From an uncultured delta proteobacterium (GTDB lineage: Bacteria; Myxococcota_A; UBA9160; SZUA-336): a stretch of DNA of 64,000 nucleotides. Below the pieces are notes generated by a model. It did no database searches, was not told where the DNA came from, and saw only the letters and a list, made by a program, of their open reading frames with translations. The stretch lies in NCBI GenBank assembly GCA_963704165.1, contig CAVPHD010000008.1, positions 1 to 64,000 of the forward strand, read 5' to 3'. The first letter of the stretch is position 1. Every line of letters begins with the position of its first letter. Made by a program: the position numbers and the translations under genes. Shown one piece after another: positions 685 through 64,000 of this stretch.

Positions 685-1169
685 ATGTCGAAAGAAACTA
701 TCAAAGCCGGTAAAATGTGTTTCCCTGACCTATTCGATTTCCGACACCGAAGGCAACGTGCTTGAACAGAGCGACCTGCCGGTCAAATTACATCCACGGC
801 GGCGAGACCGAGTTGATTGGGGGTATGGACAAAGCCGTTGCCGGGAAAGGCGTGGGTGACGAGGTGACGATCAGGCTTTCGCCGGCGCATGGGTTTGGCG
901 ACCACGATCCGAATCTGACCTTCACGGATGATATCGAGAATGTCCCACCCCAATTCAGACAACTGGGTGCTGAGGTGCAGATGCAGAACGAGGTGGGTGA
1001 AATGAAGAGCTTTTTCGTTACCAAGATTGAAAACGGTCGGCTGACCGTGGATGGCGATCATCCCCTGGCCGGCAAGGAATTGACGGTGAAGGTGAAGATC
1101 CTCGAAGTGCGGGATGCCACCCAGGAGGACGCCACGCATATCGGGATCCCGGCCAGCCCCAAACCCTGA
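685..1169 (+). CDS. FKBP-type peptidyl-prolyl isomerase (SlyD/SlpA-like, no His-rich tail; frameshifted near 5' end)
   Basis: YIHGG...GDEVTIRLSPAHGFG...VDGDHPLAGKELTVKVKILEVRDAT motif; ATG at 685 needs a frameshift to join. Confidence 0.85.
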
Positions 1170-1491
1170 ATTGACCTAAGATTGCCCGGCAGTCGGAGGG
1201 CTCGTTCTCGAATCAGTATCTCTATCGGGTCAAGGCTGGTTTGAAAGCGCAGTACACCCCTCACCAAGGATTTTTTCCAGCCCTGCGAAACGGGGATGTC
1301 TCGTTGGCCGCGATTTGCAGTGTTGGACGCAATAAAACTATACTGATTTTTCTTTTCGTTCTCCATTCACCCGGTCCAGACGCTGTAATTGAATTGATAC
1401 TGGTTTTTTTGTCTCCCGGGTTTTGCATTAGGTTGTCCTGATCGGGTGTTCCGAGAATTTCCACCTGATTCCCTGATTTTTGGAAGTCTTC

Positions 1492-2867
1492 ATGAAACTT
1501 GGTGTCTTGATACTGGCTGCAGGCGAAGGAACCCGCATGCGTTCCAGGCTGCCCAAAGTGCTCCATCGGCTTGCCGGAAAACCGCTGCTGTCAGGCGCAT
1601 GTCATCGATACGGCACGGGATTTGCTCGCCCGATGAAATCACCGTGGTGTACAGCCATGGTGGTGAACAGGTGCGGGATCTGCTCGCTGCGGACGATCTG
1701 GATTGGTGTGAGCAGATACAACGTCTTGGTACCGGTCATGCTGTGATTCAGGCCTTGCCGTATCTCCAGCGGGTCGATCAGGTGGTGATTCTGTACGGAG
1801 ATGTCCCGCTGATCACCGGCCGGACCCTGCAGGCCGCCAATGGTCTGCGCCGCTGTGATCTGGTCCTGCTCACCGAACAGCTCGAAGATGCCACTGGTTA
1901 TGGCCGTATCCTGCGCGATGCCGGCGGCCGGATTACCGAGATTGTGGAGCAGAAGGATGCCAGTGATGAGCAGTTGCTGATCAAGGAGATCAATACCGGA
2001 ATCCTGGCGGTCAAGCGCTCCCGTCTGGAGGACTGGCTGAGCCGGATCGGTAATCGCAATGCACAGCGGGAATATTACCTGACCGATATCATCGCCCTGG
2101 CGGTGCAGGACGGCGTGGAGATCGAGGCGGTGAACCCCGCCAGTGAAGAGGAAGTCATGGGCATCAACGACCGCCGGCAATTGGCCTATCTGGAACGGCA
2201 CGTGCAGCGTGAACGGGCGGCAGGATTGATGAAATCGGGTGTCACTCTGGCCGATCCGGCGCGCCTGGACGTACGCTGGTGAGTTGCACACCGGCAGCGA
2301 TGTGTTCATCGACTGTAACGTCATCTTCGAAGGCCGGGTGGAACTGGCGGATGGAGTGAAGATCGGCCCCAATGTGCTGATCAGGAATGCCGTCATCAAA
2401 GAACAGGTGGAGATCTTCGCCAACAGCGTGATCGAAGATGCAGTGATCGGGCAGGCTCACGCGTCGGACCCTTCGCCCGCATTCGCCCGGAGACCGAACT
2501 GGCGGATCATGTGCATATCGGCAATTTTGTCGAGGTCGAAGAAGAGCCGGGTCGCCTCCGGCAGTAAGATCAATCACCTGAGCTATGTGGGTGACAGCGT
2601 GATCGGCAGCCAGGTGAACATCGGCGCGGGCACCATCACCTGCAATTACGACGGGGCCAACAAACATCAGACCGTCATTGGGGACAATGCCTTCATCGGT
2701 CCGCGACACCCAGTTGGTGGCGCCGGTGACGGTCGGAGCCGGCGCCACCGATCGGCGCCGGCTCCACCATCACCCGGGATACCCCGCCCGACAAGCTGAC
2801 CCTGAGCCGCGCCAAACAGATCAGCGTGGATAACTGGCAGCGGCCGATTAAACAACCCAAAGATTAG
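1492..2867 (+). CDS. glmU: Bifunctional UDP-GlcNAc pyrophosphorylase/glucosamine-1-P acetyltransferase (several frameshifts)
   Basis: [75 protein letters not shown] across frames. Confidence 0.93.
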
Positions 2868-2884
2868 CGCCAAGGAGGCGTTGT

Positions 2885-3005
2885 ATGTGTGGCATTGTAG
2901 GCGCGGTTGCGCAACGGGACGTGGCCCCCTCATTCTGCTGGAAGGGCTGAAACGCCTGGAATATCGAGGTTACGACTCCGCCGGCCTGGCGGTGCTCGAT
3001 GACGC
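2885..3005 (+). CDS. glmS: Glutamine-fructose-6-phosphate aminotransferase, N-terminal ~40 aa only (truncated at junction)
   Basis: [14 protein letters not shown]...[22 protein letters not shown] with RBS AAGGAGG; homology stops abruptly at ~3005. Confidence 0.9.
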
Positions 3006-3059
3006 GGCGGACGCGAGTGCCAGCCCCGCCAAGAGCAGCGCGATTCGCGCCGTCACCAT
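3005..3059 (-). CDS. Signal-peptide remnant of the next Bat-operon gene (probably BatD), truncated at junction
   Basis: [19 protein letters not shown] overlaps the stop of the upstream gene; BatD identity inferred from operon position only. Confidence 0.45.
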
Positions 3060-4669
3060 GTCTTTGCTCCCGGACGAGCACGCGGCTTGCCGTCGAACTC
3101 GTTCGTGACCTGCCGGCGCAAGGCGTCGCCCACGGGCTCGTCGAGCGTCGCGAGCCAGCGCTCGGCTTCGCGCTCGTCGAGTCCAACGGGCGAGGGCTGG
3201 GGCTCGCCGCGAGCCGGGGCGTCCGTGCTCGGCGCGGGCTCGGAAGATTCGCCGTCGCGTTTGGAGCTCGGACTCGGCTCGGTCTCGGGTGCGGGCGGAA
3301 GTTCGAGGATCCTCGAAAGCGCGAATTCGTAGTTGAACTTCGCTTCGACCTCGTCCGGTCGCGCGAGCAGGGCCGCCCAGTAGGCGTCGCGCGCCTCCTC
3401 GAAGTGCTTCTGCGCGACGAGCGTATTCCCCAGGTTGAAGCTCGCCGCGAACCGCGCCGCATCGTCGCCGGGCCGCAAGGCGCGCAGCGCTTCCAGGTAC
3501 GCGCTCGCAGCCTGATCGATGCGGTCCAGCCGGTAGAGCGCATTGCCGATCCGGATCTGCGTGCGCGCATCGTCGGCTCCGGTGCGCTCGGCCTCGCGGT
3601 AGTAGCCGAGCGCTTCCTCGGGACGCCCGTCCGCGAGCGCTTCATCGCCGCTCGCAAGCCAGCTCGAGACGGGTCCGAACGCCGCGGTCGCGAGCGCGAC
3701 GGTCGCGACCGCAACCCGTTGGCGGTGAGCCGGGCGCAGGCGTTGCAGGTGCTCTCCCGAGAGCCAGAGCTCCGCGATCAGCGCGAGTCCCGCGGCCAAG
3801 ATCCAGGGCAGGAGCGGATCCGTGAACGGCTCGCCGGCCGGCTCGGGCGCGGCACGCGGTACCGGCGGTGGCAAGAGATCCGCGGGGGTCGGCCGCTCCT
3901 CGATCTCGCGGAAGTAGACGCCGCTGGTCTCCGAAGCGATCCGACGCAGAATGGCGTCGTCGCGGCGCGAGACCGTCGGCTCGCCGCTGCGGATCGACTC
4001 GGTGAGTGCGAGCTGCCCCGGCACCGCGGCGCCGTCCTCGGTCCCGAATCCGACGGCGACGACCCGCGCGCCAAGGCTCGTGAGCTCGGCGATCTGTGCA
4101 TCGAGCGACGGACCGAAATGCTCGCCGTCCGTCAGCAGGAGCACGGTGCGCGGCCGGCTCGAGCGCGGATCGAAGGCGCGTGCGGCCACCGCCAATCCGC
4201 GGCCGAGTTCGCTGCCGCGTACCGAGATCGTGTCACCGTCGAGCGCGCGCAGATACGTCAGGACGGCATCGTGATCCTGCGTCAGCGGCAGCGCGATGAA
4301 CGCCTCGCCCGCGAACACGACCAGCGCGAGGCGGACATCCCGCGCCTCCTCGGCCACGCGCTCGGCCGTGCGCAGCGCGCGCCGAAGCCGCGATGGGGCG
4401 ACGTCGGTCACGTCCATGCTGGAAGACGTGTCGATCGCGATCACCACGTCCGCGGAATCGTCCGAGAGCGATTCGGGGGTCTCGAGTGCGAGCGTGAGCG
4501 AGATCGCGACCAGCGCGGCGACGCTCGAGAGCGCGAGCGCGCGCGCGATTCGCGCGACCGGGGTGGGATCGCGCCCGAGCCAATCGATGAGCTCGCGGCG
4601 TCCCCGGAGCGCGGCCTGGCCGGCGAGTGCGGCGACCGCGAACACCGCGAGCCAAGGAAGCGCGTTCAC
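3053..4669 (-). CDS. vWA domain + TPR protein (BatB/BatC-like fusion)
   Basis: [37 protein letters not shown] helices ([16 protein letters not shown]), C-terminal KTW; GTG at 4669 overlaps upstream stop. Confidence 0.85.
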
Positions 4670-5700
4670 GGCAACCTCCGTGCGAATCCGTGCGCGAGCG
4701 CAGCCTCGATCAGCAAGAGCGCGAGCGCGAGCGCGAGCGACACGGGGGCGAGCGACGCGTGCCGGTAGCGTGGCTCGAGCGGCCGTGGCCGCGCCTCGAG
4801 CCGATCGATCGCCGCCGCGACGCCGGCGAGGTCCTCGGGACGGCGCGCGTGGAAGAAGTGACCCCCGGTCGTGTCCGAGATGTTCTCGAGGGTCTCGCGA
4901 TCGAGATCGACGCGCTCGAAGCGCATCGGGGTTCCCGTGCCGGGCTGTGCGAACGGCACGAGGCCGGACGTGCCGACACCGACGGCGTGGATCCGCACGC
5001 CGGCCCGGGTCGCGAGCTCCGCCGCGGTCTTCGGGGCGAGCTTCCCGGAGTTGTGCCGGCCATCGGTGACGACCACGAGGATGCGACGGCCGTCGTCCGG
5101 ACCGCCGGAGATCGAGAGCCGCTGCGTGCCGAGTCCGATCGCCTCGCCGAGCGCGGTCGCGTCGCCGACCAGCCCGGCCTCGACGCGCGCCAGCGCCTCC
5201 TGCAAGAGCCGGTGATCGACGGTGAGCGGGCACTGGGTGAACGCGTGCTCCCCGAACGCGACCAGCCCGATTCGATCGCCGCCGCGCACGCGCACGAACT
5301 CGGCGACGGCGCGCTTGGCGAGCTCGAGGCGCGTGACCTGCCGGCCCTCGATCTGGCCGTCGAGCGCGAGCATGCTGCCCGATGCATCGAGCGCGATCAC
5401 GAGATCGACGCCGGATCCGCCCGCGGGATTCTCCGGTACGAGACCGATCGGACGTGAGGCCGTCAGCACGAGCAGGCCGAGGACGACGATGCGAAGCGCG
5501 ACCGAGATCAGGAACGCGAGATCAGGCCGACCTCGCCAGGCGGAGGCACCCGCGCTCGGCACGCGCAAGCGCCGCGGACCGCGCACAAGCGCGACGACCG
5601 CGACGATCGCGACCCCGACCAGCCCCGAGACCAGCAGGCGCGGCGCCTCGACCGCGAAGGCCGCGACGTCGAGCGAGCTAAGCGCGGAGACCGGCCACAT
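4666..5700 (-). CDS. batA: vWA domain protein BatA-like
   Basis: DLVIALDASGSM, DRIGLVAFGEHAFTQCPLTVDH, TALGEAIG, VVVTDGRHNSG. Confidence 0.85.
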   Translation of the reverse strand: MWPVSALSSLDVAAFAVEAPRLLVSGLVGVAIVAVVALVRGPRRLRVPSAGASAWRGRPDLAFLISVALRIVVLGLLVLTASRPIGLVPENPAGGSGVDLVIALDASGSMLALDGQIEGRQVTRLELAKRAVAEFVRVRGGDRIGLVAFGEHAFTQCPLTVDHRLLQEALARVEAGLVGDATALGEAIGLGTQRLSISGGPDDGRRILVVVTDGRHNSGKLAPKTAAELATRAGVRIHAVGVGTSGLVPFAQPGTGTPMRFERVDLDRETLENISDTTGGHFFHARRPEDLAGVAAAIDRLEARPRPLEPRYRHASLAPVSLALALALLLIEAALAHGFARRLP

Positions 5701-6550
5701 GGCGAACACGCTCTCGCGCTCTCGACGCGAGGGATGCAAGGGGGGCGAGCGTCGGCCGCTTCTCGAAGCGCGCGAGCTCGAGCGACTGCAGGATGTTCAC
5801 GAGCTCCAGATCCACCATCGCCGGGAGTTCAGCCGGCGTGGCGCTCGACGCGTCGAAGCTCCACACGCCGGAGACGAAGTCGACCAGCGCGTTGCGCACG
5901 CGGCTCGCGAACGCGCGAGCGTCCGTGCTGCTCTCGGGATCGGCGAGCTCCGAGAGCGCCGTACGGGCCGAGCCCTCGAGCTTCGTCGTCGCCTCGCGAA
6001 GCGTTCGCGCGCGGCGGCGCACGGCGCGAACACCGAGCAAGACCAGCAGGATTCCCGCGGCGCCGACCCCGAAGACCCAGAGAGGTGTCGGCGCGATCGG
6101 GGGTGCCGTGCGGATGTCGAAGACCGCCTCGCGCTCGGGCAGGTCGGCGCGCACCGAGAGCACGGAGAGCGGAACGCCGCCGACGCGGATCGGTCGCACG
6201 GCCCCGTCGGGCCGCACCAGCGGAACCTCGAGCCACGGCAGCGCGTGCTCGCCGACTTCGCGAGCGCGGACGATCCAGAGCAGATGGTGACGCAGACCGG
6301 TGTCGGTTCCGATCGGCTCGACGACCGTCACCGAGTCGGAGGCGAACGCCCCGTCGCCCGGCGCGGCCGGGGTCTGCACCGTGAAACCGGGTGGCGTCTC
6401 GACCTCGACCGTGACGCCGATCGGATCGCCGACCTGCGCGTGACTGCGGTCGAGCGTGATGCGTGCGCCGATCCCCGACTCGAGCACTGGATCCTCGCCG
6501 CAAGCCGCCGACAAGAGCGCAGCGAGAACGAGCGGAGCCGCGCGTTTCAA
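5678..6550 (-). CDS. Bat-operon membrane protein/lipoprotein (BatD/DUF4381-like)
   Basis: Lipobox-like LLSAAC, Ig-like VGDPIGVTVEV, DIR..P then TM segment, ARFE tail; TTG overlaps DUF58 stop. Confidence 0.65.
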   Translation of the reverse strand: MKRAAPLVLAALLSAACGEDPVLESGIGARITLDRSHAQVGDPIGVTVEVETPPGFTVQTPAAPGDGAFASDSVTVVEPIGTDTGLRHHLLWIVRAREVGEHALPWLEVPLVRPDGAVRPIRVGGVPLSVLSVRADLPEREAVFDIRTAPPIAPTPLWVFGVGAAGILLVLLGVRAVRRRARTLREATTKLEGSARTALSELADPESSTDARAFASRVRNALVDFVSGVWSFDASSATPAELPAMVDLELVNILQSLELARFEKRPTLAPLASLASRARERVRHVAGLRA

Positions 6551-52016: not shown

Positions 52017-55000
52017 CTAGCCGAGCCGCTCGCGGTTTCCGCTGCGCAGCCAGATCAGCTCGAGAGCAGGCTCCGGTTCACCCGGAAAGGCCAGCGCGAC
52101 CCCGCGGGCGTAGGTCGAGAGCTGCTCGCGGTAGTGGGCACGCGCCGCGTCGTCGGGCGCCCTGTCCGACTTGTAGTCGGCCACCACCAGACGCCCGTCG
52201 GTGTCGCGGTAGAGCAGATCGATCGTCCCGTTCCAGGCGGTGTCGCCGTCGCGAAACGAGATCGGCAGCTCGCGGCCGAGTACGTTGATGCTCGCGAGGT
52301 AGCCGGGCAGCTCGCTCGCGGCGATCTCGGCGGCGAGCGCCCGTGACTCGCGGACGAGCAGATCGGCGTCGAGTGACTCGTCGGCCGCCACCCGCCGGGC
52401 GGCGAACTCGACGAGACCTTCGAGTGTCCGCGGGTCGCGGAAGTCCCAGCGTTCGAACGCATCGTGGAGAGTCGTTCCGATCGCGCGTCCGCGTCGGGCG
52501 CTCGGGGGTTCGGGCGGCGGCGGCAGCGGCGCTTCGGGTTCGAGATCGCTCGCGAGCTCGCGTGCCTCGGCGTCTTCGCGCAGGCCGGAGGGACTCCGGA
52601 ACGGCGGACGCGCCGCGTTCCGGGCGATCTCGACGGCGCGCGAAGCACGCGCGACCGCTTCGCTCGTCGGTGTCGCTGCGGTCGCAGGCAGGGACGCCTC
52701 GACGCTCTCGGGCACGGGCACGGATCGCGCGATCACGTCCCGCTCCTCGCAGAGCGGCTCTTCGCTATCGAGGCCCTCTGCCGGGTATCCCCACGGCTTC
52801 AGGTAGTGGACGAAGGCCTCCGCCGGTGGCTTCGACTTGCGCGGGGCGTGCACGAAGATCAGGCGCCTTTCGGCGCGCGTGCACGCGACGTAGAAGACCC
52901 GTCCCGCCTCTGCGACCTCGTGGATCGTCTCCTGACGCTCGTGCTCGATCCAGCTCGAGGAGATCCCGGCTCGCGTCGAGATCGCGACGGCGTGCCCCGC
53001 TTCGACCCGCGCCCATTCGACCTCGACGCTCTCCTTCTCGCCGCCACCCTTCCCGCGTGAGAGATCCGGCAGGATCACGACCGGGAATTCGAGCCCCTTG
53101 GCGCCGTGGATGCTGAAGAGGCGCACGCGATCGGGGCTCGCCTCGGCGTCGCCGGGGGACGTGCGTCGCTCCTCCGCCTCGAGCTCGCGCACCAACTCCG
53201 CGAGGTCGCGTCCGGGCCGGGCCTGCGCGACCTCGACCAGGTGCTCGACGAGATAGCCGAGGTCGGCGCCGCGTCGCTCCCCGTCCCGCGCGCCGGCGTG
53301 GATCGCGAGCAGCGGCGTCTCCTCGACGAGCGCCGTCAGCAGGCGTTCCGGTGCAGCCGAACGCGCGAGCGCGTACAGCTCTCGAAGCAGGCCGAAGCCA
53401 CGCGAGAGCTGCGGGAGCTCGTCGGCGGGCGGTTCGACATCCGGATACGCCCAGCAAGCCTCGCGCTCGCGTCCACCGAAGCGGCCTGCCCACTTCGCGA
53501 GCTCAGCGTCGGGAACGGCGCCGAGAGGCGAGCGCAGGACCCCGATCACCGCCGGGGCGTCGGCGGGATTTGCGAGCGCACGCAGCAGCGCCAGAAGCTG
53601 TTTGCTCGCGGGTTGGGACTCGAGCTTCTCGCTGCGGCCGATCAGGCACGGGATGCGACGGTTCTGCAGCGCGCGGGCGTAGAGGTGGACGTCCCCCATT
53701 GCGCGGAAGAGGAGCGCAACGTCCTTCGGCTCGAGTCGCTTCGACGTGATTTCGGACTCGACCCAGGCGGCGATTGCCTCGGCTTCGGCGTGCCGCGCTT
53801 CGTCCGCATCGCGCTTCGATTCCGTACCGCCGACGGTCCAGACCTCGACGCTGGCGTCGCGATTCGGAGGGAGCCCCGACGAGAGGCCTTCGTAGCCCGA
53901 GTAGGCGAGCTCGGGATCCGGATCGGATGTGGAGAGCACTTCTTCGAAGAGGCGATCGATGGGTTGGAGGACCTCCGGGACCGCGCGGAAATTCGTGACC
54001 AGCTCGAGTCGGGCGCCGCCGTTCCGCTCCACCACGTGCGCGGTCGCGTTCTTGTACGCCGAGATGTCGGCACCGCGAAAGCGATAGATCGCCTGCTTGG
54101 GATCGCCGACGATGAAGAGCTTCCCCGCCGCGAGCTTCGTGTCGTAGGCGTCCTGCGCGGGCTCGGAACTCGGATCCTCGGCGATCAGGAACACGATCCG
54201 GTACTGCAGCGGGTCCGTGTCCTGGAACTCGTCGAGAAAGAGCGTTTCGAAACGGGCTCCGAGCTCGCGGCGGATCTTCGGGTGTGCGAGGACGAGGTCG
54301 TGCGCCAGTGCGAGAAGCGCGTCGTAGGGCAGAATTCCCTGGACGCGCGCCTCTCGTTTCACGGCGCTCGCGTAGGGCGCGATCAGACCGAGCGCGTCGG
54401 AGAGCAGCTCGTCGTCGATCTTGCGCAGGCGGACGAGAGTCGGATAGAGGTCGTTCGCGAGATCGGCAGCGTCCGCGTAGCCCGACTTCGTCGGTGGCGT
54501 CGTGTCGAGCAGGCTCCGATCCTTGCCTCGACCGCTGGTGCAGCGCGCACCGTCGAGCGCGGCACAGCAGGCCGAGAGGCCGTCGTCGAGAAGCACCTGC
54601 AGCGCGCCCCGAGCGGCTGCGAGCCAGCTCTCGGGTCCATCCGCCGGAGTCCCGGAGAGAAGCGCGTCGATTCGCGCGAGCGCGGACCTTGCCGTGACGT
54701 CGAGGATCGAGCTCGCCTCCAGCAGTCCGCTCTCGATGACCGGCTCCGGGACCTCGAAGGAGGAGCACGCGCGACCGAGGATCTCGAGCTCGGCGAGGTC
54801 GAGCAGCGCGAGCACGCGACTCCAGACGGATTCGCGGGTGCCGCCGGGACCGTCGTCGCCGGACAGGAACGCGGACCACGTCTCGCGCCGCAGCTCCTCG
54901 AAACCCAGTCCGTTCTCGACGGAGAAACGCGGATCGACTCCCGACTCGATCGGGAATCGGCGAAGGAGTCGCGCGCAGAAGCTGTGGATGGTCGAGATGT

Positions 55001-55370
55001 CCGCGCGCTCGAGATCTCGAAGACGAAGCGAGGCCAGCGCTTCGATCCGCTCGATCGAGACGTGTTCGAGGAGCCAGACGTACGCACGTCCGGCCGCGCT
55101 GGCCAGATCCGCGTCCGCGGGGGGCGTGTGCGCGCGAGCGAGCCGTACCAGCTCGGCGAGACCCGCGGCGAGGCGCGTGCGCATCTCCGCGGTCGCCTTC
55201 TCGGTGAACGTGATCGCGGTGAAGGCATCGACGTCGAGATCGCGCGCGATCATCTGACAGATGACGCGCTCGACGAGAAGACTGGTCTTCCCGGTTCCCG
55301 CGCCGGCGACGACGATGACGTTCTCGTCGAATGCGTGCGCGGCGCGTTCGCGCGCGGGAGCGTCGTTCAC
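52017..55370 (-). CDS. addA: AddA-like UvrD helicase-nuclease
   Basis: AGAGTGKT, TFTEKA, STIHSF, LDEFQDTDPLQ, VGDPKQAIYRFRGAD, IHGAKGLEF, YVACTRA, GTIDLL..VADYKS. Confidence 0.9.
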   Translation of the reverse strand: MNDAPARERAAHAFDENVIVVAGAGTGKTSLLVERVICQMIARDLDVDAFTAITFTEKATAEMRTRLAAGLAELVRLARAHTPPADADLASAAGRAYVWLLEHVSIERIEALASLRLRDLERADISTIHSFCARLLRRFPIESGVDPRFSVENGLGFEELRRETWSAFLSGDDGPGGTRESVWSRVLALLDLAELEILGRACSSFEVPEPVIESGLLEASSILDVTARSALARIDALLSGTPADGPESWLAAARGALQVLLDDGLSACCAALDGARCTSGRGKDRSLLDTTPPTKSGYADAADLANDLYPTLVRLRKIDDELLSDALGLIAPYASAVKREARVQGILPYDALLALAHDLVLAHPKIRRELGARFETLFLDEFQDTDPLQYRIVFLIAEDPSSEPAQDAYDTKLAAGKLFIVGDPKQAIYRFRGADISAYKNATAHVVERNGGARLELVTNFRAVPEVLQPIDRLFEEVLSTSDPDPELAYSGYEGLSSGLPPNRDASVEVWTVGGTESKRDADEARHAEAEAIAAWVESEITSKRLEPKDVALLFRAMGDVHLYARALQNRRIPCLIGRSEKLESQPASKQLLALLRALANPADAPAVIGVLRSPLGAVPDAELAKWAGRFGGREREACWAYPDVEPPADELPQLSRGFGLLRELYALARSAAPERLLTALVEETPLLAIHAGARDGERRGADLGYLVEHLVEVAQARPGRDLAELVRELEAEERRTSPGDAEASPDRVRLFSIHGAKGLEFPVVILPDLSRGKGGGEKESVEVEWARVEAGHAVAISTRAGISSSWIEHERQETIHEVAEAGRVFYVACTRAERRLIFVHAPRKSKPPAEAFVHYLKPWGYPAEGLDSEEPLCEERDVIARSVPVPESVEASLPATAATPTSEAVARASRAVEIARNAARPPFRSPSGLREDAEARELASDLEPEAPLPPPPEPPSARRGRAIGTTLHDAFERWDFRDPRTLEGLVEFAARRVAADESLDADLLVRESRALAAEIAASELPGYLASINVLGRELPISFRDGDTAWNGTIDLLYRDTDGRLVVADYKSDRAPDDAARAHYREQLSTYARGVALAFPGEPEPALELIWLRSGNRERLG

Positions 55371-58198
55371 CGTCGCGCCTCTCGCAGTTCGAACCAGCGC
55401 CTGGAGATGCCCGAGGATCGCACGCGTTCACGGCTGGCGGGTTCGGTTCGTCGACACGCGATCGTGTAGGCACAGTAGCGGCACTCGGCGCGATCTTCGT
55501 GAAACGGAAACACCCCCGCCGAGAGCAGCCGGGTGAGCTCGGCGAGCACCGGACGTGAGAGATCTTCGATTCTCGCAAGCGGAAGGCTGCGCTCGGCTCG
55601 CCGGTCGCCGTCGCGATCCCGTTCCGGGCGCAGCGGCACCGGAAGCGCCTCGCCCGTGACCGCCGCGGTGTCGCGAACCGTCGAGACCGCGAGGGCGTAG
55701 AGCGGGATCTGCAGCGACGCGCCCCGCTTCACCCGCGTCTCGTTCACGGGCCTGCCGAAGTCACGGCCGGTCTTGTAGTCGCCGACGCGGAGCACGCCGT
55801 TGGAATCGCGGACGATGCGGTCGATCTGGCCCTTGATCGCGAGTTCGATCCCTTCGCCGAGGTCGAGGATGGCCTCGATCGGATCTTCGGTCTCGAGCTC
55901 GTCGATGCCGCCGGGCAGAAGCTCGTGGAGATCGCGTTCCAGGAAATCCTCGAGGGCGCGTCGGAGGAGCTCCTGGTACGCGCTCCAGACCGCGGGCCTT
56001 CGCTCTCGGATGCGAGCTCGGGCTTCCGTCGCGGAGTCCGCGAGCGCCGGCGCGAGCAGACCGCGCGCGCGCTCGAGCGCGACACCAGGCGATGTACCGG
56101 CGCGCAGCAGGCCGAGGTCGAAGAGCTGCCGGTAGACGAGCCGGAGCGTCGCGTGCACGAGAGAGCCCGCTTCGGCAGGATCGAGGGCGTCGGCCGCGGG
56201 CTCTTCGAGTTCCCGCGCGCCGAGGATCCGCTGGAAGAAGGCTTGCAACGGGCAACGGCCGAGACGGTCGATGAAGCTCGGTGAGAACGCGCCCGGCAGA
56301 GTCAACGCGTCGGCTCCGACGGAGCCGTCGTACGGCAGCGCGTTCGCGCGGGTCGCCTCCGTCGCCCGAAGCAGCGCGTGCCCGGCGTCCAAGATGCGCG
56401 CGGACCCGGAGACCCGGGACGCGGACGCGCGTGCGAACGTCGGAGCGTCACCCTTGGGTGTCGTCAGCATCGACAGGACGTCGGTGCCCGGCGCCGCGAA
56501 GGGCAGATCGCGGAGCAGCCCCGAAGGCGCGAGCGCACGGCCGGCACCGTCGGCGATCGGGAACGAGACCACAACGTGCTCTCGTGCCTGCGCGAGCAGC
56601 AGTCCGAGGAGGAAGCGCTCCTCGGGAATCGCCCATTCCCGAATCGGAACCGGGCGACGCAGGGTCTTGCGCAGTGCCGTGCGCACGCGATCGGGAAGGA
56701 ACGGATCGTCGGCGGAATCGCGCGGCCAGGCGCCGTGCACCATGCCGATCAGGAAGAGATGCGAGCAGGGGAGGCCGCGCGCCTGGATCGCGTCGAGGAT
56801 CCGCACCCCTCCACCGTCGCTGGGACTCCAGCTCGTGGAGCGTTCCAGAAGCGCGGCTTCGAGCGCGGTCGTGAGCTCGATGCCGCTCGGCGCTCGCTTC
56901 GCGCGCGCCTTGCGATCGACGTCGTCGAGAACTCCCACGCTCTCGAGAGCGGCGCGGCACTCCCCGCCCGCGAGGTCGCTCGCGAGCCCGAGCGCGATCG
57001 CAACCGCGTCGGTGAAGCTGCGCGCGGCGGCGAACTCCGCCCGGGCCGTGAAGAGGCGCTCGAGCTCGGCGCGAAGCTCGCGGAGCTCCGGCGAGGGCTC
57101 TCCCGCGTCGAGCGCGGCTCGCCAGTCCGCGTCGCCGCGAATCACGGCTCCCGTGCGTGCGAGTCGCTCGGCGAGCTTCGCGACTCCGCGCTCGCAGATC
57201 CGGTCGAGCAAGCGCACGACCGGCGCGCGTTCGAGATCGCGGCCGAGCGCGCGCACGAGATCGAGCCAGGTGCGCGCCTCGGGCGCGGCCACGGCGGGAC
57301 GCGTGAGCGACGAGGTCACCGGAATTCCGTAGCCGTCGAAGATCGGCGGCAGCCATGCGGCGTAGGGCTCGAGGGAGCGCGCGACGATCAGGATCTCGCG
57401 CGGCGCGACGCCGGTCTCGATCAGGGCGAGCACCTCGCGAGCGACGTGTTCGAGCTCCTCACGCGGCGTTCGCGCCTGAAGCACGCGGAGCGCGTCCTCT
57501 GGAATCGTGCCGTCGCGCGTCAGCGCCGGGTCGGCGACGAGCTCGATCGCCTCGGGCCGGAAGCGCCACGGCCATTCCTCGCGCAGTCGCTCCGCGTGGT
57601 CGTTCGCCCAATCCGGCTGGAAGAAGCGCAGGCCGTCGGACGGCAACGCCCCGGCGATCGCTTCGATCAGATCACCGGCCGATCCGACGAGCTCCGTCGC
57701 TCCGTGCACCTCTGCACTCGTGTACCCGCGTCGCGCGACCCAGGCCGGAGCGCCGCGTGCGGCGAGGCGGAACAAGCCGATCCGGTCGTACGAGCCATCG
57801 CCCTCGAGCTCCGTCAGCGCTCGTTCCACGTCGGTGTAGAGCGCGCGCAGGTCGGCGACCTCGTCCGGGAGCGAAGCCGGCGCGACGCCCGCGTCCCGAA
57901 GGTCGCGAAGCGTCGAGGCGAGGGCCGGCGCGAAGCCGGGGCGCTCCGTGATCAGCGGTCCGAAGCGATCACTTCGCTGCGCGCAGACCGCGATCAGACG
58001 CGTGAACGCGATTCCGCCGAGTCGATGTCGGACAGGGGTTCCGGTTTCGGCCGCGCAGCGCTCCGCGAGTCCACGCAGGTTCAGGAACTCGCGGCCGAGC
58101 AACGCGGCGCCGCGCGCGTCGTCGAGCGCGCGAAGCCGTCGCTCGCGCAGGACGCGCGACGATGCCGCGATCTCGAGGACGCGCTCGACTCCGCTCAC
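55367..58198 (-). CDS. addB: AddB-like helicase-inactive/nuclease subunit
   Basis: QARG, ER.LL, SPS...CP..F, G.LVH, GQIDRI..GDYKTG, LQIPLY, CRYCAYTIAC; overlaps addA start. Confidence 0.85.
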   Translation of the reverse strand: MSGVERVLEIAASSRVLRERRLRALDDARGAALLGREFLNLRGLAERCAAETGTPVRHRLGGIAFTRLIAVCAQRSDRFGPLITERPGFAPALASTLRDLRDAGVAPASLPDEVADLRALYTDVERALTELEGDGSYDRIGLFRLAARGAPAWVARRGYTSAEVHGATELVGSAGDLIEAIAGALPSDGLRFFQPDWANDHAERLREEWPWRFRPEAIELVADPALTRDGTIPEDALRVLQARTPREELEHVAREVLALIETGVAPREILIVARSLEPYAAWLPPIFDGYGIPVTSSLTRPAVAAPEARTWLDLVRALGRDLERAPVVRLLDRICERGVAKLAERLARTGAVIRGDADWRAALDAGEPSPELRELRAELERLFTARAEFAAARSFTDAVAIALGLASDLAGGECRAALESVGVLDDVDRKARAKRAPSGIELTTALEAALLERSTSWSPSDGGGVRILDAIQARGLPCSHLFLIGMVHGAWPRDSADDPFLPDRVRTALRKTLRRPVPIREWAIPEERFLLGLLLAQAREHVVVSFPIADGAGRALAPSGLLRDLPFAAPGTDVLSMLTTPKGDAPTFARASASRVSGSARILDAGHALLRATEATRANALPYDGSVGADALTLPGAFSPSFIDRLGRCPLQAFFQRILGARELEEPAADALDPAEAGSLVHATLRLVYRQLFDLGLLRAGTSPGVALERARGLLAPALADSATEARARIRERRPAVWSAYQELLRRALEDFLERDLHELLPGGIDELETEDPIEAILDLGEGIELAIKGQIDRIVRDSNGVLRVGDYKTGRDFGRPVNETRVKRGASLQIPLYALAVSTVRDTAAVTGEALPVPLRPERDRDGDRRAERSLPLARIEDLSRPVLAELTRLLSAGVFPFHEDRAECRYCAYTIACRRTEPASRERVRSSGISRRWFELREARR

Positions 58199-58204
58199 GT
58201 TTGC

Positions 58205-59350
58205 CTAGCGCAGCTCCCGGAAGAACTTTCGGATGTCCTCGACGAGAAGCTTCGGCTCCTCGAGCGCGGCGAAGTGGCCGCCGGTCTCGAAGACCGACCA
58301 CTGCTTCACGTTGAAGGCGGCCTCGGCCCACGTGCGCGGCGCCTTGTAGAGCTCCTTCGCGAAGATCGCCCCCGCGGTCGGCACCTCGACCCGGCCCTCG
58401 GCCGCGCCGAAGCGGCCCGAGCGCATCGACTCGCAGTAGAGCCGCGTCGACGACGTGATCGACTGCGTGGTCCAGTAGATCATCACGTTGGTGAGCAGCT
58501 CGTCCTTCGTGAAACGCGACTCGACGTTCCCATCGCAGTCGCTCCAGGTGCGGAACTTCTCGACGATCCAGGCCGCGAGGCCGGCCGGGGAATCGTTCAA
58601 GCCGTAGCCGAGCGATTGCGGCTTGGTCCCCTGGATCTGCTGGTAGCCGGTCTCGTTCTTCTGGAAATTCCCCATCTCGCCGAGCCAGCCGAGCTCTTCC
58701 GGCGTCACGCCCTCCATCGGATTGGCGACACCGGCCGGTGGACCCGCGACGAGCATGTTCATGTGGATGCCCGCGCAATGCGTCGGATCGACGCGGGCGA
58801 CCCACGACGTCGCGATCGCACCCCAGTCCCCGCCTTGCGCGCCGTAGCGCGAGTACCCGAGCTGGCCCATCAGGGCGGCGACGGTTTCGCCGACGCGGCG
58901 GATGTCGAAGCCGGGCTCGTGCGGCGGCTCGCTCCAGCCGTAGCCCGGCATCGACGGGCAGACGACGTGGAACGAGTCCTCTTTCCGTCCACCGTGCGCG
59001 GCCGGATCGGTGAGCGGGCCGATGATCTTGTGGAATTCGTACACCGACCCCGGCCAGCCGTGCGTGATCACGAGCGGAAATGCGCCGGGATCCTTCGAAC
59101 GCTGGTGAATGAAGTGCACGTCGAGATCGCGCACCTTCGTCTTCCAGTGCTCGAACTGGTTCAACGCGCGTTCGTGCGCGCGCCAATCGTACTTCGACTG
59201 CCAGTACGCGACGAGCTCGCGCAGGTACGAGAGCTCCGTTCCGTAATCCCAGTTCGCGCCCTCGAGCTGATCGGGAAAGCGCGTGCGCGCGAGGCGATCC
59301 GCGAGATCCTTCAGCACGCTGTCGGGAACTTCGATCTTGAAGCGCTGCAC
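58205..59350 (-). CDS. Epoxide hydrolase (EHN + alpha/beta hydrolase)
   Basis: RBS GGAGG; DLADRLARTRFP, YDWR..E, THGWPGS, PSMPGYGWS, AQGGDWG, DSPAGLAAWIVEKF, GGHFAALEEP. Confidence 0.93.
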   Translation of the reverse strand: MQRFKIEVPDSVLKDLADRLARTRFPDQLEGANWDYGTELSYLRELVAYWQSKYDWRAHERALNQFEHWKTKVRDLDVHFIHQRSKDPGAFPLVITHGWPGSVYEFHKIIGPLTDPAAHGGRKEDSFHVVCPSMPGYGWSEPPHEPGFDIRRVGETVAALMGQLGYSRYGAQGGDWGAIATSWVARVDPTHCAGIHMNMLVAGPPAGVANPMEGVTPEELGWLGEMGNFQKNETGYQQIQGTKPQSLGYGLNDSPAGLAAWIVEKFRTWSDCDGNVESRFTKDELLTNVMIYWTTQSITSSTRLYCESMRSGRFGAAEGRVEVPTAGAIFAKELYKAPRTWAEAAFNVKQWSVFETGGHFAALEEPKLLVEDIRKFFRELR

Positions 59351-59417: not shown

Positions 59418-59446
59418 TTGACACCGTCGTGTCGCGGGCGTAACTG
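59418..59446 (+). promoter_or_regulatory. Putative sigma70 promoter into a non-coding region
   Basis: Perfect TTGACA (59418-59423), 17 nt, TAACTG (imperfect -10). Confidence 0.5.
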
Positions 59447-59451
59447 TGTGA

Positions 59452-59794
59452 TTGTCGGTCGAGGCCGAGCCGAGGAGACATGAGGGCTCGTTCCTGCGGC
59501 ACGATCGCAGGCTCGGATGATCGGCCGACGCTCGAGAAGTCGCGGGACGAGCGAGCGGGTGCTCCGGTGAGCCACCGGGGACGTCAAATCAAAGCCGGGA
59601 GGACCGGGGACGGTTTTCCGACGGGCCGGCGCCGAAAAGCGGCGAGTCATCCGCCGCGACGCCGGGATGCACACCGCCGGAGTTCTCCGGTCGCGATCCT
59701 CGATCCGACCGTGTCCAGCATGCCGGCGAATTCGAGGACCGACTCACCGCGCAAGAAAGTCCCGAGGTCGAGCCTCACCGCCACCCGCGGCCTC
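59452..59794 (+). ncRNA. Candidate large structured non-coding RNA (unassigned)
   Basis: No credible ORF; many local and long-range complementarities (see findings). Confidence 0.45.
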
Positions 59795-59807
59795 AGTCGC
59801 CACGTTC

Positions 59808-62800
59808 TCAGCGGAAGTCGTGCGAGCGCGGCAGGAGCCCGGCCATGGCGTCGCCGTCGAGGCGCTCGAAGCGGCGGGCGCGGACGTGGATCACGCCGTC
59901 CTGATTTTGGACCGGGCCCTCGACGAGCAGGAGGCCGGCGGACTGCACGAGCGCGCGGTGGCGTTGGAACATGTCGGGGACGACGATCGCGTTCGAGGTG
60001 CCGGTCTCGTCCTCGAGGGTGATGAAGAGGAAGCCCTTCGCGCTGCCGGGGCGCTGGCGCACGATCACGGCGCCGGCGATGCGCACCCAGGCTCCGTTGC
60101 GCGCATCGCGTAGCTCGGCGGCGCTCTTCACGCCGCGCGCGCGCAATCGCTCGCGGAAGTGCGACATCAGGTGCGCGCCCGTGGTGATGCCCGTGCCGCG
60201 GTAGTCCGCGACCGTCTCGTCGAAGCCGGTCATCTCGGTGAGCGGCGAGGGCGCGGTCGAGGTCGCGCCCGAGAGCAGTCCGCCCTGCAGCGCGGCCACC
60301 TGCCAGAGCGCCTCGCGCCGCGCCAGGCCCAGGCTCGCGCAGGCGCCGACCGAGGCGAGCTTCTCGAGCTCGTCGCGGTGAAGGGCCGCGCGGTGTGAGA
60401 GATCGCCGAGCGACGCGTAGGGGGACTGGGCCGCGATCCGCTCACCCGCCTCCTTGCGCAGCCCGTCGACGTAGCGAAGTCCGAGGCGCACGGAGCTCGG
60501 CGTGTCGTCGTCATCGACGTGACAGAGCCAGTCGCTCTTCTGCACGTCGATCGGCAGCGTGCGCACGCCGTGGCGCGCGGAGTCCTGCACGAGCGTGGCG
60601 GGGCTGTAGAAGCCGAGCGGCCAGTGGTTCAGCATGGCGGTGAGAAAGCACGCGGGGTGGTGCGCGCGGATGTACGCCGACGCGTACGCGAGCAGCGCGA
60701 AGCTCGCGGCGTGGCTCTCGGGGAAGCCGTAGAGCGCGAACGACCCGATCTGTTTCACGACCTCGTCCTGCGCCGCGGGGTTGACTCCGTTCTGTGTCAT
60801 GCCGTTTCGCAGCTTGGCGACGATCGACGCCATGCGATCGACCGAGCGCTTGAAGCCCATCGCGCGGCGCAGCTCCTCGGCCTCGCCGCCGGAGAAGCTC
60901 GCGATCGCCATCGCCATGCGCAGGAGCTGTTCCTGGAAGAGCGGCACGCCGAGGGTGCGCGCGAGGATCGGCTCGAGCAGCGGGTGCGCGTACGTCACCG
61001 GCTCGCGGCCGGCGCGGCGCTGCAGGTAGGGCTGCACCATCTGGCCCACGATCGGTCCGGGGCGGATGATCGCGACCTCGACGACCAGGTCGTAGAACGT
61101 CTTCGGCTTCATGCGCGGCAGCGTCGCCATCTGCGCGCGGCTCTCGACCTGAAAGACGCCGATCGTGTCGGCCCGCTGCAGCATCTGGTAGGTCAGCGGG
61201 TCGTCGGCGGGAATCTTCGCGAGATCGACGTCGGCGCCGTCGTGCGTGCGCACGAGCGGGATCACGTCCTCGAGCACCGCCATCATGCCGAGCCCGAGCA
61301 GGTCGATCTTGATGATGCCGAGATCCGCGCAGTCGTCCTTGTCCCACTGGATCACGGAGCGGCCCGGCATGCGCGCGGGCTCGAGCGGGACGACCTCGTC
61401 GAGGCGCCCCTGCGCGATCACCATGCCGCCGGAGTGCTGGCCGAGGTGGCGCGGCAGGTTCTGCGTCTCGTGCACGAGCCGGACCAGGTGGCGCACGCGC
61501 GGCGCGTCGGGGTGCACGCCCGACTCGCGGAGCTGCCGCTCGAGCACGTCGTGCTCGTCTTTGAACTCGTGGCGCGACATCAGCTTCGCGAGGCGTTCGA
61601 TCTGGTCGGGCGCGAGCCCGAGCACCTTGCCCATCTCGCGCACCGCGCTCTTCGCGCGGTAGGTGATCACGTTCGCGGTCATGCCCGCGCCGTGCGGGCC
61701 GTAGCGCCGGTAGACGTACTGGAGGATCTCTTCGCGCCGTTCGCCCGACGGCAGATCGATGTCGATGTCGGGCCACTCGCCGCGCTCCTCGGACAGGAAG
61801 CGCTCGAAGAGCAGCTCGTAGCGCACCGGGTCGATCGCGGTGATGCCGAGCGCGTAACACACGATCGAGTTGGCCGCCGAGCCGCGCCCCTGGCACAGGA
61901 TCCCGCGCGCGCGGCACTCGCGCACGATGTCCCAGACGATCAGGAAGTAGCCGTCGAGCGCGAGCCGTCCGATCAGGCCGAGCTCGTGGTCGAGCTGCGC
62001 GCGCGCCTTCTCGGGCACGCGTCCGCCGTAGCGCTCGCGCGCGCCGACGAAGGCGAGCTCGCGCAGCTTTCCCGGCAGCGTCTCGTCCGCGCCGAGCGGG
62101 AAATCCGGGAACGCGTAGCCCAGATCTTCGAGCCGGAACTCGCAGCGCTCCGCGACCGCGAGCGTGTTCGAGAGCGCCGCGGGCAGGTCGGCGAAGCGCT
62201 TCGCGACCTCGGCCGGCGCGTGCACGTGGCGTTCGGCGTTGGGCAGAAGCAGGCGCCCGGCGTCGTCGAGCCTCGCGGAGCTCGCGATGCAGGTGAACGC
62301 GTCGAGCAGCCGCTTGCCCGCCGGCCGCGCGTGGCGCACGTCGCCGGTCGCGAGCGGCGCGATGCCGGTCGCGAGGAGCCGCCGGTTCGCGCGCTCCTCG
62401 TCCGGGTCGCGGTGGCGCCAGAGCTCGCCGTACGCGTCCGCGCCGAAGATCTCGCGGACCGGCTTCGCGAGCCGTGGCTCGCGCACGACCGCGACGAGCC
62501 CGTCCGCGTGCGTGCGGAGCTCTTCCCAGGTGACGCGGCTCTGCGGCTTCGGGCAGCGCGCGTGGCCGAGCGTGAGCAGGCGACACAGATTGCGGTAGCC
62601 CGAGCGGGTCCGGACGAGCAGGGTGACCCGGCCGCCGTCGGGCGGTGGATCGCTCTTCCGCCTAGGCGGCCCTTCGCCGAGCAGAACCGCGCGTGCGCCG
62701 ACGATCGCGCGAAGGCCCGAAGCACGCGCGGCGCGCGCGAAGCGCGGCAGACCGTACACGCCGTGCACGTCGGCGAGCGCGAACGTGCCGTGGTCCAGCT

Positions 62801-62897
62801 CGGCCGCGCGCGCGACGAGATCCTCGGGCGCGGAGCTGCCCTCGAGAAAGCTGAAGGCGCTTCTCGCGCCGAGCTCGATGAACGGGGGGGAGGGCAC
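59808..62897 (-). CDS. dnaE2: Error-prone DNA polymerase DnaE2 (ImuC)
   Basis: SAFSFLEGSS, CQGRGSAANS, PDIDID, PRHLGQHSGG, QWDKDD, KIDLLGLGM, GFPESHAASFA, VRQRPGSAKG, SHDFR end. Confidence 0.95.
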   Translation of the reverse strand: MPSPPFIELGARSAFSFLEGSSAPEDLVARAAELDHGTFALADVHGVYGLPRFARAARASGLRAIVGARAVLLGEGPPRRKSDPPPDGGRVTLLVRTRSGYRNLCRLLTLGHARCPKPQSRVTWEELRTHADGLVAVVREPRLAKPVREIFGADAYGELWRHRDPDEERANRRLLATGIAPLATGDVRHARPAGKRLLDAFTCIASSARLDDAGRLLLPNAERHVHAPAEVAKRFADLPAALSNTLAVAERCEFRLEDLGYAFPDFPLGADETLPGKLRELAFVGARERYGGRVPEKARAQLDHELGLIGRLALDGYFLIVWDIVRECRARGILCQGRGSAANSIVCYALGITAIDPVRYELLFERFLSEERGEWPDIDIDLPSGERREEILQYVYRRYGPHGAGMTANVITYRAKSAVREMGKVLGLAPDQIERLAKLMSRHEFKDEHDVLERQLRESGVHPDAPRVRHLVRLVHETQNLPRHLGQHSGGMVIAQGRLDEVVPLEPARMPGRSVIQWDKDDCADLGIIKIDLLGLGMMAVLEDVIPLVRTHDGADVDLAKIPADDPLTYQMLQRADTIGVFQVESRAQMATLPRMKPKTFYDLVVEVAIIRPGPIVGQMVQPYLQRRAGREPVTYAHPLLEPILARTLGVPLFQEQLLRMAMAIASFSGGEAEELRRAMGFKRSVDRMASIVAKLRNGMTQNGVNPAAQDEVVKQIGSFALYGFPESHAASFALLAYASAYIRAHHPACFLTAMLNHWPLGFYSPATLVQDSARHGVRTLPIDVQKSDWLCHVDDDDTPSSVRLGLRYVDGLRKEAGERIAAQSPYASLGDLSHRAALHRDELEKLASVGACASLGLARREALWQVAALQGGLLSGATSTAPSPLTEMTGFDETVADYRGTGITTGAHLMSHFRERLRARGVKSAAELRDARNGAWVRIAGAVIVRQRPGSAKGFLFITLEDETGTSNAIVVPDMFQRHRALVQSAGLLLVEGPVQNQDGVIHVRARRFERLDGDAMAGLLPRSHDFR

Positions 62898-62901
62898 GGC
62901 G

Positions 62902-64000
62902 CTAGTCGTAGATCCCGTCGACGAACCAGGAGTCGTCGGGCAGGTTGTGGTACAGGCGGTAGACGCCGCCGTCGGAGAGCTCGACGTCCCAGTAGTCGCG
63001 CGCGAAGCGGGTTTCTCCCCACCACTCGCCGAAGAGGCGCCAGGGTCCGGCGGCGTTTCGCACGCGGCCGCCCTCGGAGTCGAGCGGGGCGTCGGCGACC
63101 AGCGACACGTACACCGGAGGCTCTCCGCCCCGGTCCGGTGGGGCCCGGCGCGCGGGCGGCCGCGCGCCACCCACGACTTCGCTCGACTTCGTCTCGCTGC
63201 GCACCGCGCCTTCGGCGCGGCTTGCTCCGTACACACGAACGCTCTGCGGCGGCCGCACGGCGCGGAGCGCCATGACACCGCGCGGTGACAGGGGCTCGTA
63301 TTCGGACGCGGCGGGCGGATCGCTCCTGCGCTCGTGCGCGATGTGGAATTCGGCGAGCGTGGCGGCGTCGGGCTGGTGGGTGTCCTGGACGCGGGGCGCG
63401 CCGACCTGGCCGGGGCCGCAGAGCGACTCGATGCGCGCGATGGCGATGGCGAGCTCGCCGGGGGAGGGGAGCGGCGGCAGGAACAGATCGAGCTGCGCGG
63501 TCTCGACGCAGTCCGGTGTCGCGACGAGACGCGCGTGAAGCACGGCTTCCGGCGGGGGCTCCGACTCGAGCGACAGACGCACGAGCGCGAGCAGCACGTT
63601 CGTCTCGAGCGTGGGCGCGGCCAGGCCGAGCTCGCGCGCGAAGAGCGTGCCGCTCTCGAGCCCGAGCTCGAGCCGAAGCCGGCGCAACGCGAAGCCGCGC
63701 ACGCGCAGCCGGCGCAGCAGCCGATCGAGCGCGCCGCGCAGGAAGAACGCGAGCGGCTCCAGGTTCGCGATCGGCCATTCGGATTCCGCGCTCTCCTCGA
63801 AGCGAAGCTCGGGCGGGTGTACACGAAAAGGCGACAGGTCCTCGCCGTTTGCGCGGCGCGCGAGCCGGACGCCCGCTTCGCCCAGACGCGCGCCGAGCGA
63901 CGCGCGCGGGAGCCGCGCGAGCTTGCCCAACGTGCGCACACCCCAGCGCGAGAGCCGGTCGGCCAGCTCGCCCGCGGGCTCGAGCAGGTCGAGCGGGAGC
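62902..64000 (-). CDS. imuB: ImuB (Y-family polymerase-like), 5' end outside window
   Basis: WGVRTLG.L, QLDLF clamp-binding motif, GPWRLFGEWW...RDYWDV...YRLY...W.VDG.YD; directly upstream of dnaE2. Confidence 0.88.
   Translation of the reverse strand, partial: LPLDLLEPAGELADRLSRWGVRTLGKLARLPRASLGARLGEAGVRLARRANGEDLSPFRVHPPELRFEESAESEWPIANLEPLAFFLRGALDRLLRRLRVRGFALRRLRLELGLESGTLFARELGLAAPTLETNVLLALVRLSLESEPPPEAVLHARLVATPDCVETAQLDLFLPPLPSPGELAIAIARIESLCGPGQVGAPRVQDTHQPDAATLAEFHIAHERRSDPPAASEYEPLSPRGVMALRAVRPPQSVRVYGASRAEGAVRSETKSSEVVGGARPPARRAPPDRGGEPPVYVSLVADAPLDSEGGRVRNAAGPWRLFGEWWGETRFARDYWDVELSDGGVYRLYHNLPDDSWFVDGIYD
63125..63230. repeat. Palindromic REP/MITE-like element inserted in frame in imuB
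   Basis: Stems GGCGCGCGG/CCGCGCGCC (63147-63168) and CCGCGCC/GGCGCGG (63204-63220); GACTTCG twice; boundaries approximate. Confidence 0.55.

Follow-up and report, generated by a model that had tools for sequence, protein, structure and literature searches.

A real and undescribed family of structured RNA, narrow in range and with an unusual interlocked 5' domain, is encoded in the DNA analysed here (one stretch of 64,000 nucleotides, hereafter the window). It is a stand-alone structured non-coding RNA that occurs family-wide: it was found in 28 of 32 genomes of a single bacterial family and in no other family searched.

The RNA gene and its surroundings

The gene occupies positions 59453..59801 of the plus strand (predicted ends), and the RNA measures 308-375 nt across its homologues. 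It is preceded by a promoter-like element (59418..59446, plus strand), composed of a -35 hexamer TTGACA (59418-23), a 17-nt spacer and a weak -10 hexamer TAACTG (59441-46) that lacks the last T of the consensus; from this spacing, transcription would start at about 59452-54. A consensus promoter scan gave no site upstream of the RNA, because of the missing T. The element, already pointed out in an earlier reading of the sequence alone (the sequence-only reading), lies exactly where that reading placed it and is well preserved. TTGA(C/T) is present in all 27 homologues, 128-152 nt upstream of the core, and TA follows at the -10 position after a 17-nt spacer in 24 of the 27; only five of the 27 keep the final T of this hexamer. 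We infer that the RNA is transcribed from this promoter of its own.

Both neighbouring genes lie on the minus strand and outside the RNA. The divergent neighbour is an epoxide hydrolase gene (58205..59350; PF06441), and such a gene also adjoins the RNA on the upstream side at 16 of 23 homologous loci. The convergent neighbour is a dnaE2-type gene for the DNA polymerase III alpha subunit (59808..62894, with Pfam support), which the RNA gene does not overlap in the window. The convergence on dnaE2 noted from the sequence is correct for the window, but the wider link is one of local synteny only, dnaE2 being found within 1.5 kb downstream at 11 of the 23 loci. At the nine loci where the next gene lies on the same strand, it belongs to eight unrelated families, and elsewhere the downstream genes are often convergent. 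A constant same-strand downstream gene of related function, as expected of a riboswitch or cis-leader, was not found across the homologous loci. Because the neighbouring genes vary, the RNA is predicted to act in trans. The wider surroundings form a DNA-repair neighbourhood, with an addA/addB-like helicase-nuclease pair (52017-58198, minus strand) and an imuB-like gene together with dnaE2 (59808-63941, minus strand), of which only the addB-like gene and dnaE2 have Pfam support.

Distribution

BLAST searches of 61 related genomes gave matches in 27, and 20 full-length copies were kept as homologues; the weak rows (L021-L027) were left out, three of them having been inspected and found unrelated. 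A covariance model of the core (R1) detected one copy in 22 of 23 family genomes with a completeness of at least 85%, and in a sample of the phylum it recovered four of four family genomes. A model of the 5' domain recognized 23 of 24 family genomes and none of 126 others. The four family genomes in which the RNA was not found are 92, 73, 75 and 58% complete. Each carrier has one copy, as does the genome from which the window comes, and the named carriers are Myxococcota (three, as Myxococcota or delta proteobacterium). In metagenomes 18 matching loci were found, five of them identical to genome copies. Pairwise identity among 27 copies ranges from 45 to 93%, with a median of 55%.

Outside the family, the core model matched one of 127 genomes of other families of the class (G054) and, among 146 other genomes of the phylum sample, the same G054 sequence only. 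This match (30.8 bits) was rejected as a palindromic repeat with 56 matches in G054. The repeat (L069:1525-1590) is a REP-like palindrome of about 60 nt, and BLAST also finds it 15 times in another genome (G131). A synteny search at 78 loci of three other families (f4, f5 and f6) gave no copy beside dnaE2 or epoxide hydrolase genes, and the single pattern match in viral contigs was not accepted by the model. A loose pattern scan of genome contigs yielded three true copies in 80 tested of at least 120 loci, and sets no bound on the range of the RNA; the model searches score few candidates per genome, so that distant copies can escape them. Within the genomes searched, the RNA is nearly universal in its family and its range, one family, is narrow.

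Non-coding character and covariation

The sequence does not behave as a gene for a protein. Alignment gaps are mostly not multiples of three (142 of 170), and only 11 of 27 copies retain the ATG at 59480. The 180-codon frame that begins at this ATG was considered as a coding sequence and rejected: it has no Pfam match, and neither its start nor its frame is conserved.

Folding energy, which the sequence-only reading had proposed to compare with shuffles, does not set the window's copy above chance (z = -0.84, 20 of 100 shuffles folding equally well), and in 14 of the 16 non-redundant homologues tested z ranges from +0.44 to -3.95. The homologues with covariation that the same reading had called for were found. 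Scored on 20 copies in a plain MAFFT alignment, the 89 proposed pairs show 87.5% pairing, which drops to no more than 49% when the strands are slid; 40 of the 89 show changes on both sides, compared with 22 in shuffles. Since the helices were drawn by eye from the first alignment and kinship inflates the counts, these figures are not p-values. After 27 copies had been fitted to the model, two-sided changes were seen in 39 of the 55 pairs of the core, and in 15 distinct metagenome rows 97% of the cells pair. G-U pairs are frequent on the plus strand, which identifies this as the folded strand.

The rod

The fold is predicted to be a rod with a central bubble and a distal pseudoknot, all on the plus strand. 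Its closing arm is made of P3a (59555-61/59782-88), which is nearly invariant, P3b (59565-71/59774-80) and P4 (59575-82/59759-67), with a 5' strand at 59555..59582 and a 3' strand that, together with that of P1, occupies 59759..59795 (in the order P4, P3b, P3a, P1). The bubble that follows has an A-rich 5' side (59583..59593, median 11 nt) with a conserved C-A-A, and a shorter 3' side of variable sequence (59753..59758, median 6 nt). Beyond it lies P5 (59594-601/59743-52), which opens the apical arm (59594..59691, containing P5-P9 and the distal pseudoknot). Two-sided changes in the unfitted alignment affect 7 of 8 pairs in P6 (59603-10/59684-91), all six in P8 (59626-31/59660-65) and 5 of 6 in P9 (59639-44/59652-57), with P7 (59618-23/59675-80) placed between P6 and P8. 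The distal pseudoknot (59648-51/59666-69), formed by the P9 loop with the bases just 3' of P8, is 100% paired and has two-sided changes in three of its four pairs. A variable side arm at the P5/P6 junction (59692..59742) has an identity of 0.35 and is nearly lost in some homologues.

Identity is highest at a conserved motif at 59678-85 (0.89) and in the 5' strands beside the bubble (0.84-0.86), and falls to 0.68 in the 5' side of the bubble, 0.48 in its 3' side and 0.33-0.39 in the linkers, which have no conservation peak. The 5' strand of the closing arm can alternatively fold as a local hairpin, H1 (59562-69/59573-80), which had been drawn as part of the fold in the sequence-only reading and is a conserved alternative (92% paired) to it. 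H1 is better than shuffles in 24 of 27 copies, the rod duplex is more stable in all 27, and H1 may account for the 5' strands being more conserved than their partners. A release hairpin of the 3' strand, or a full cruciform, was also considered and rejected, being conserved in 1 of 27 copies. Similar conserved 7-nt motifs are found at 59558-59564 and 59679-59685, on opposite strands of the rod and each preceding the bubble by 21-25 nt if the variable arm is disregarded, hinting at a pseudo-two-fold symmetry of the rod.

All of the complementary pairs listed in the sequence-only reading are present in the sequence, and its helices were scored on the 20 homologues. Its overall fold has mostly been replaced by the rod with two pseudoknots that covariation supports, although a few helices survive. 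The 14-bp helix 59486-500/59539-52 is P2, backed by per-sequence and partner-swap tests (see below). The pairing 59648-52/59665-69 is supported (88% paired, with 12 two-sided cells), but as a pseudoknot rather than the hairpin proposed, and the hairpin 59697-703/59732-38 sits in the variable arm that is missing from some homologues. The long-range pairing 59454-60/59737-43 (79% paired, one two-sided cell) gives way to a better partner for its 5' strand, 59522-29, at 96%, and the halves of 59630-34/59640-44 (82% paired) fit better into P8 and P9. The end-to-end helices 59461-67/59788-94 (70%) and 59481-90/59769-77 (61%), as well as the hairpin 59678-82/59686-90 (62%), are weak or unsupported.

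The interlocked 5' domain

The 5' domain (plus strand) consists of two interleaved helices of about 19 bp (S1) and 14 bp (P2), both with bulges or internal loops. P2 (59486..59552) is a hairpin of 12-15 bp, 59486-500/59539-52, and its 38-nt loop carries the 3' strand of S1 (59454..59529), in which 59454-71 pairs with 59510-29 of the loop over 15-21 bp in two segments, so that S1 and P2 would form a pseudoknot. Between the 5' strands of the two lies a purine-rich stretch (59472..59485; mean identity 0.79), whose last 4-5 nt close P1 with 59791-95. A long form of P1 was rejected, the own partner pairing no better than a foreign one (-13.7 against -12.7, with equal pairing), and only a short, conserved closing pair of P1 has support.

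The outer 8 bp of S1 are 96% paired in the 20 homologues. P2 is only 57-68% paired on plain MAFFT alignments, because of register shifts, and per-sequence tests were used instead. Against shuffled partners, all 27 copies give p ≤ 0.06 for S1 and p ≤ 0.045 for P2. In 16 non-redundant copies, the own partner gives -31.5 kcal/mol for S1 against -22.5 for a foreign one, and -24.5 against -16.8 kcal/mol for P2; the own partner is the best in 11 of 16 rows for S1 and likewise 11 of 16 for P2, where by columns it is best in only 5 of 16. Counted across bulges, S1 and P2 each reach at least 10 bp in all 27 copies, with longest unbroken stacks of 7-14 bp and 5-14 bp, respectively.

According to the portions consulted of a 2016 survey by Burton et al. 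(PMC4829277), a pair of interleaved helices, each 10 bp or longer, makes a prime candidate for a knot, and no knot was present among the RNAs solved as of 2015. By that measure of helix length, taken across bulges, S1 and P2 form such a candidate in all 27 copies. Three readings of the pair remain: the two helices may form a pseudoknot, with the bulges serving as swivels; they may alternate as the two states of a switch; or they may be threaded into a knot. Should both helices exist at once, the free 5' end passing through the P2 loop as a thread, the RNA would be a natural, evolutionarily selected knot, whose topology would lock a new class of scaffold RNA, or of RNA that binds RNA polymerase, against nucleases. 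We regard this model as unlikely. The candidates given in the consulted text of the survey, ColIb-P9 repZ (18/10 bp), CCR5 (13/25 bp) and hTER (22/9 bp), likewise have two interleaved helices. Unlike these, S1 and P2 are both conserved with compensatory changes and belong to a dedicated RNA gene; the 5' end here is only a few nucleotides from the helix, and both helices have bulges or internal loops.

One lineage (L051, L275, L277 and L280) has a small hairpin inserted between the two S1 segments, which points to a hinge there. A short palindrome in the linker of the P2 loop (59502-59507), common in two genera (g1 and g2) and absent from distant copies, could allow the RNA to form dimers.

Comparison with known RNA families

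A scan of the window with all 4227 Rfam families gave nothing at the gathering score, and at E ≤ 10 the region and its 20 homologues had chance-level matches only. The RNA thus corresponds to no known Rfam family, raiA, OLE, GOLLD and ROOL included. The scans also bear out the earlier statement that the RNA lacks the hallmark motifs of tmRNA, RNase P, SRP and group II domain V, giving no match to tmRNA, RNase P RNA, SRP RNA or group II introns; the genome's own tmRNA, RNase P RNA and SRP RNA lie elsewhere, on contigs C7, C4 and C12. The suggestion that the RNA might be a fragment of a domesticated ribozyme did not hold up, there being no meaningful Rfam score for an intron or ribozyme and no reverse transcriptase (PF00078) in the 84%-complete genome. 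The literature searched, outside of which lie subscription journals and the supplements of motif surveys, yielded no report of an RNA of this kind, and the RNA may have been listed before as an unnamed motif; a recent preprint (10.1101/2025.09.11.675593) deals with other RNAs in the part seen.

The closest parallels in shape are RNAs that bind RNA polymerase. Like the RNA described here, 6S RNA (RF00013) is a rod of interrupted helices around a central bubble with an A-rich 5' strand. However, 6S is about 200 nt long (PMC8876501, in its consulted part) against 308-375 nt, the bubble here has unequal sides (11/6 nt), those of the canonical 6S in the same family measuring about 12/11, and the invariant 3'-bubble motif of the class's 6S is absent, with 6S scores below background. 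RF00013 and Ms1 had no match at E ≤ 10 in the window and the 20 homologues, and a 6S model specific to the class (R2) scores the RNA at no more than 11.4 bits. Seven genomes (G012, G018, G021, G022, G025, G029 and G031) hold a separate canonical 6S alongside the RNA, which is therefore not the ssrS locus. The window's own genome has no canonical 6S in its assembly, as judged by a profile that recovered eight of eight held-out family members at E ≤ 1.7 × 10-10. The absence of 6S from the genus concerned (g1) says little, because 6S detection is poor across the class (12 of 127 genomes of other families). A case for replacement of 6S by the RNA was considered and could not be made, detection of 6S failing even in a genome (G027) whose congener has it.

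Some observations on 6S in the family may be added. In the window's genome, zapA abuts the gene for 5-formyltetrahydrofolate cyclo-ligase (ygfA; G000:C3:36174-36882, L044 and L045) and leaves no room for 6S, and the reading of the ligase there contains an internal stop or frameshift. The family's canonical 6S genes (L240-L247) do not sit near zapA/ygfA; their contexts vary, most have an extended -10, and only one of seven family matches reaches the Rfam cut-off.

Among lineage-restricted RNAs that bind RNA polymerase and are larger than 6S, the sources describe, in the parts consulted, Ms1 of Actinobacteria (about 300 nt) and CoRP of the single genus Corynebacterium (516 nt) (PMC11077062). Ms1 forms a long hairpin in which the bubble and the adjacent helices are the most conserved, with extra elements at its ends (PMC4191392, consulted in part). 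The RNA described here is likewise stand-alone, restricted in lineage and in the same range of size, and shares the bubble with Ms1. It differs in belonging to another phylum, in its pseudoknotted 5' and distal domains and in having no Rfam match, and its binding of RNA polymerase is putative. In the literature consulted, pseudoknotted end domains are described for neither 6S nor Ms1. The ornate RNAs raiA, OLE, GOLLD and ROOL likewise occupy a single locus and have many helices. As described in the portion consulted of PMC12968392, raiA is highly abundant, has two pseudoknots, as here, and a compact multi-stem core, and has no known function. The present RNA is by comparison an extended rod, matches none of the Rfam models of these four and occurs in one family as against thousands of species.

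Presence in RNA libraries

Parts of the stretch are contained in 20 of 22 listed sequencing runs, 16 of them recorded as RNA, most at a small share. Depth was profiled in seven runs, chosen for holding the stretch, with thirteen small-share RNA runs excluded; the contigs come from relatives, are mostly 80-99% alike, and carry no strand, ends, level or DNA control. Over 59421-59771, the contigs of run X3 add up to a depth of 922-5,824, whereas no bin outside 59421-59888 exceeds 8; in X1 one bin reaches 59, against at most 7. Of the four runs X1, X2, X3 and X7, the second and the last showed no excess over the flanks. In X3, X11, X17 and X18, cover is confined to 59464-59789, apart from shallow pieces in dnaE2, and in X18 it reaches about 1,200. 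Cover is thus deep in two of seven metatranscriptome runs, and is consistent with, and no more than consistent with, an abundant discrete RNA. Together with the homologues, the covariation and the conserved promoter, these contigs uphold the proposal in the sequence-only reading of a large orphan structured RNA with its own promoter.

Possible functions

The function that we tentatively place first, at somewhat worse than even chances, is that of a decoy for RNA polymerase, of the kind of 6S, Ms1 and CoRP and outside those families. In this model the central bubble, flanked by about 21 bp and about 28 bp, would mimic an open promoter and, when cells grow slowly, hold RNA polymerase, as core or holoenzyme; the locking of the 5' end in the P2 loop, with the distal pseudoknot, would make the RNA long-lived, and the conserved hairpin H1 in the 5' arm might be a folding intermediate or release state. 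This is favoured because the bubble-containing rod is supported by covariation, because conservation peaks beside the bubble on the 5' strands and at 59678-85 (compare Ms1 in the consulted part of PMC4191392), because lineage-restricted binders such as Ms1 and CoRP exist (PMC11077062, likewise), and because of the trans-acting layout and the depth in X3 and X18. Its elaborated ends are compatible with such a role, since a bubble with short arms suffices for the 6S-1 cycle in vitro (PMC8876501, in the part consulted). The lack of a canonical 6S in the window's own assembled genome would fit as well, although we draw nothing from it, given the poor detection of 6S across the class. Against a decoy stand the missing 6S and Ms1 matches and the low R2 score, the coexistence with canonical 6S in seven genomes, the asymmetric bubble with its poorly conserved 3' side, the 3'-strand release hairpin conserved in only 1 of 27 copies, and the runs X2 and X7. 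Close behind ranks a possible role as an ornate RNA resembling raiA or OLE, that is, an abundant and compact scaffold for proteins other than RNA polymerase that promotes survival during slow growth. The RNA's two pseudoknots, its many helices, its single locus in each genome and its own promoter would fit such a role and recall raiA (PMC12968392, as consulted); however, the Rfam models of such RNAs do not match, no constant neighbouring gene offers itself as a partner, and the single large bubble within a rod is more suggestive of a mimic of a nucleic acid.

Other readings are less probable. An unlikely one is that the RNA regulates by pairing with mRNAs or contacting the ribosome through the purine-rich, Shine-Dalgarno-like 59472-85 or the A-rich strand of the bubble: although 59472-85 is conserved while its pairing with the 3' tail is unsupported by partner swapping, conserved helices tie up most of the molecule, and the poorly kept ATG and the gap lengths given above also speak against it. 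HDV-like ribozymes have helices in the order P1/P3/P1.1, and the arrangement of P8, P9 and the distal pseudoknot resembles this by analogy; with its complex fold, it might suggest a ribozyme or the domesticated RNA of an intron, retron or transposon. We consider this improbable, however, in view of the best ribozyme score (Hammerhead_1, 19.3 bits against a cut-off of 34, in one of 20 homologues), the single copy, the genome's lack of a reverse transcriptase and the rejection by the model of the sole viral match. Marginally less probable again is a highly diverged member of a known family, either one that descends from 6S as a second paralogue or one published as a motif outside Rfam. The 5' arm is weakly like the class's 6S (11.4 bits), and the best matches of the core model on two 6S loci are to 6S itself (12.4 and 10.7 bits), but these scores are at background level, and the literature searched gave no paper on such an RNA, motif-survey supplements lying outside that search. 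Least probable of all, and very much so, is a cis-acting leader or riboswitch for the next gene, or antisense control of dnaE2; alternative structures (H1, and S1 versus P2) and the convergence to dnaE2 at 11 of 23 loci could be read that way, yet the downstream genes are often convergent or unrelated and dnaE2 is not overlapped in the window.

Significance

Few large and intricately folded bacterial RNAs are known beyond the housekeeping set, and the RNA described here is absent from Rfam and strongly supported by covariation. Its significance is limited by a range that, among the genomes searched, is confined to one family, and by a function that is predicted only. As a short and conserved molecule in which two long helices interleave, it offers, whatever its function, a direct test for natural RNA knots. 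If it does bind RNA polymerase, it would represent a further, pseudoknot-capped design beside 6S, Ms1 and CoRP, and would indicate that such RNAs have arisen again in Myxococcota.
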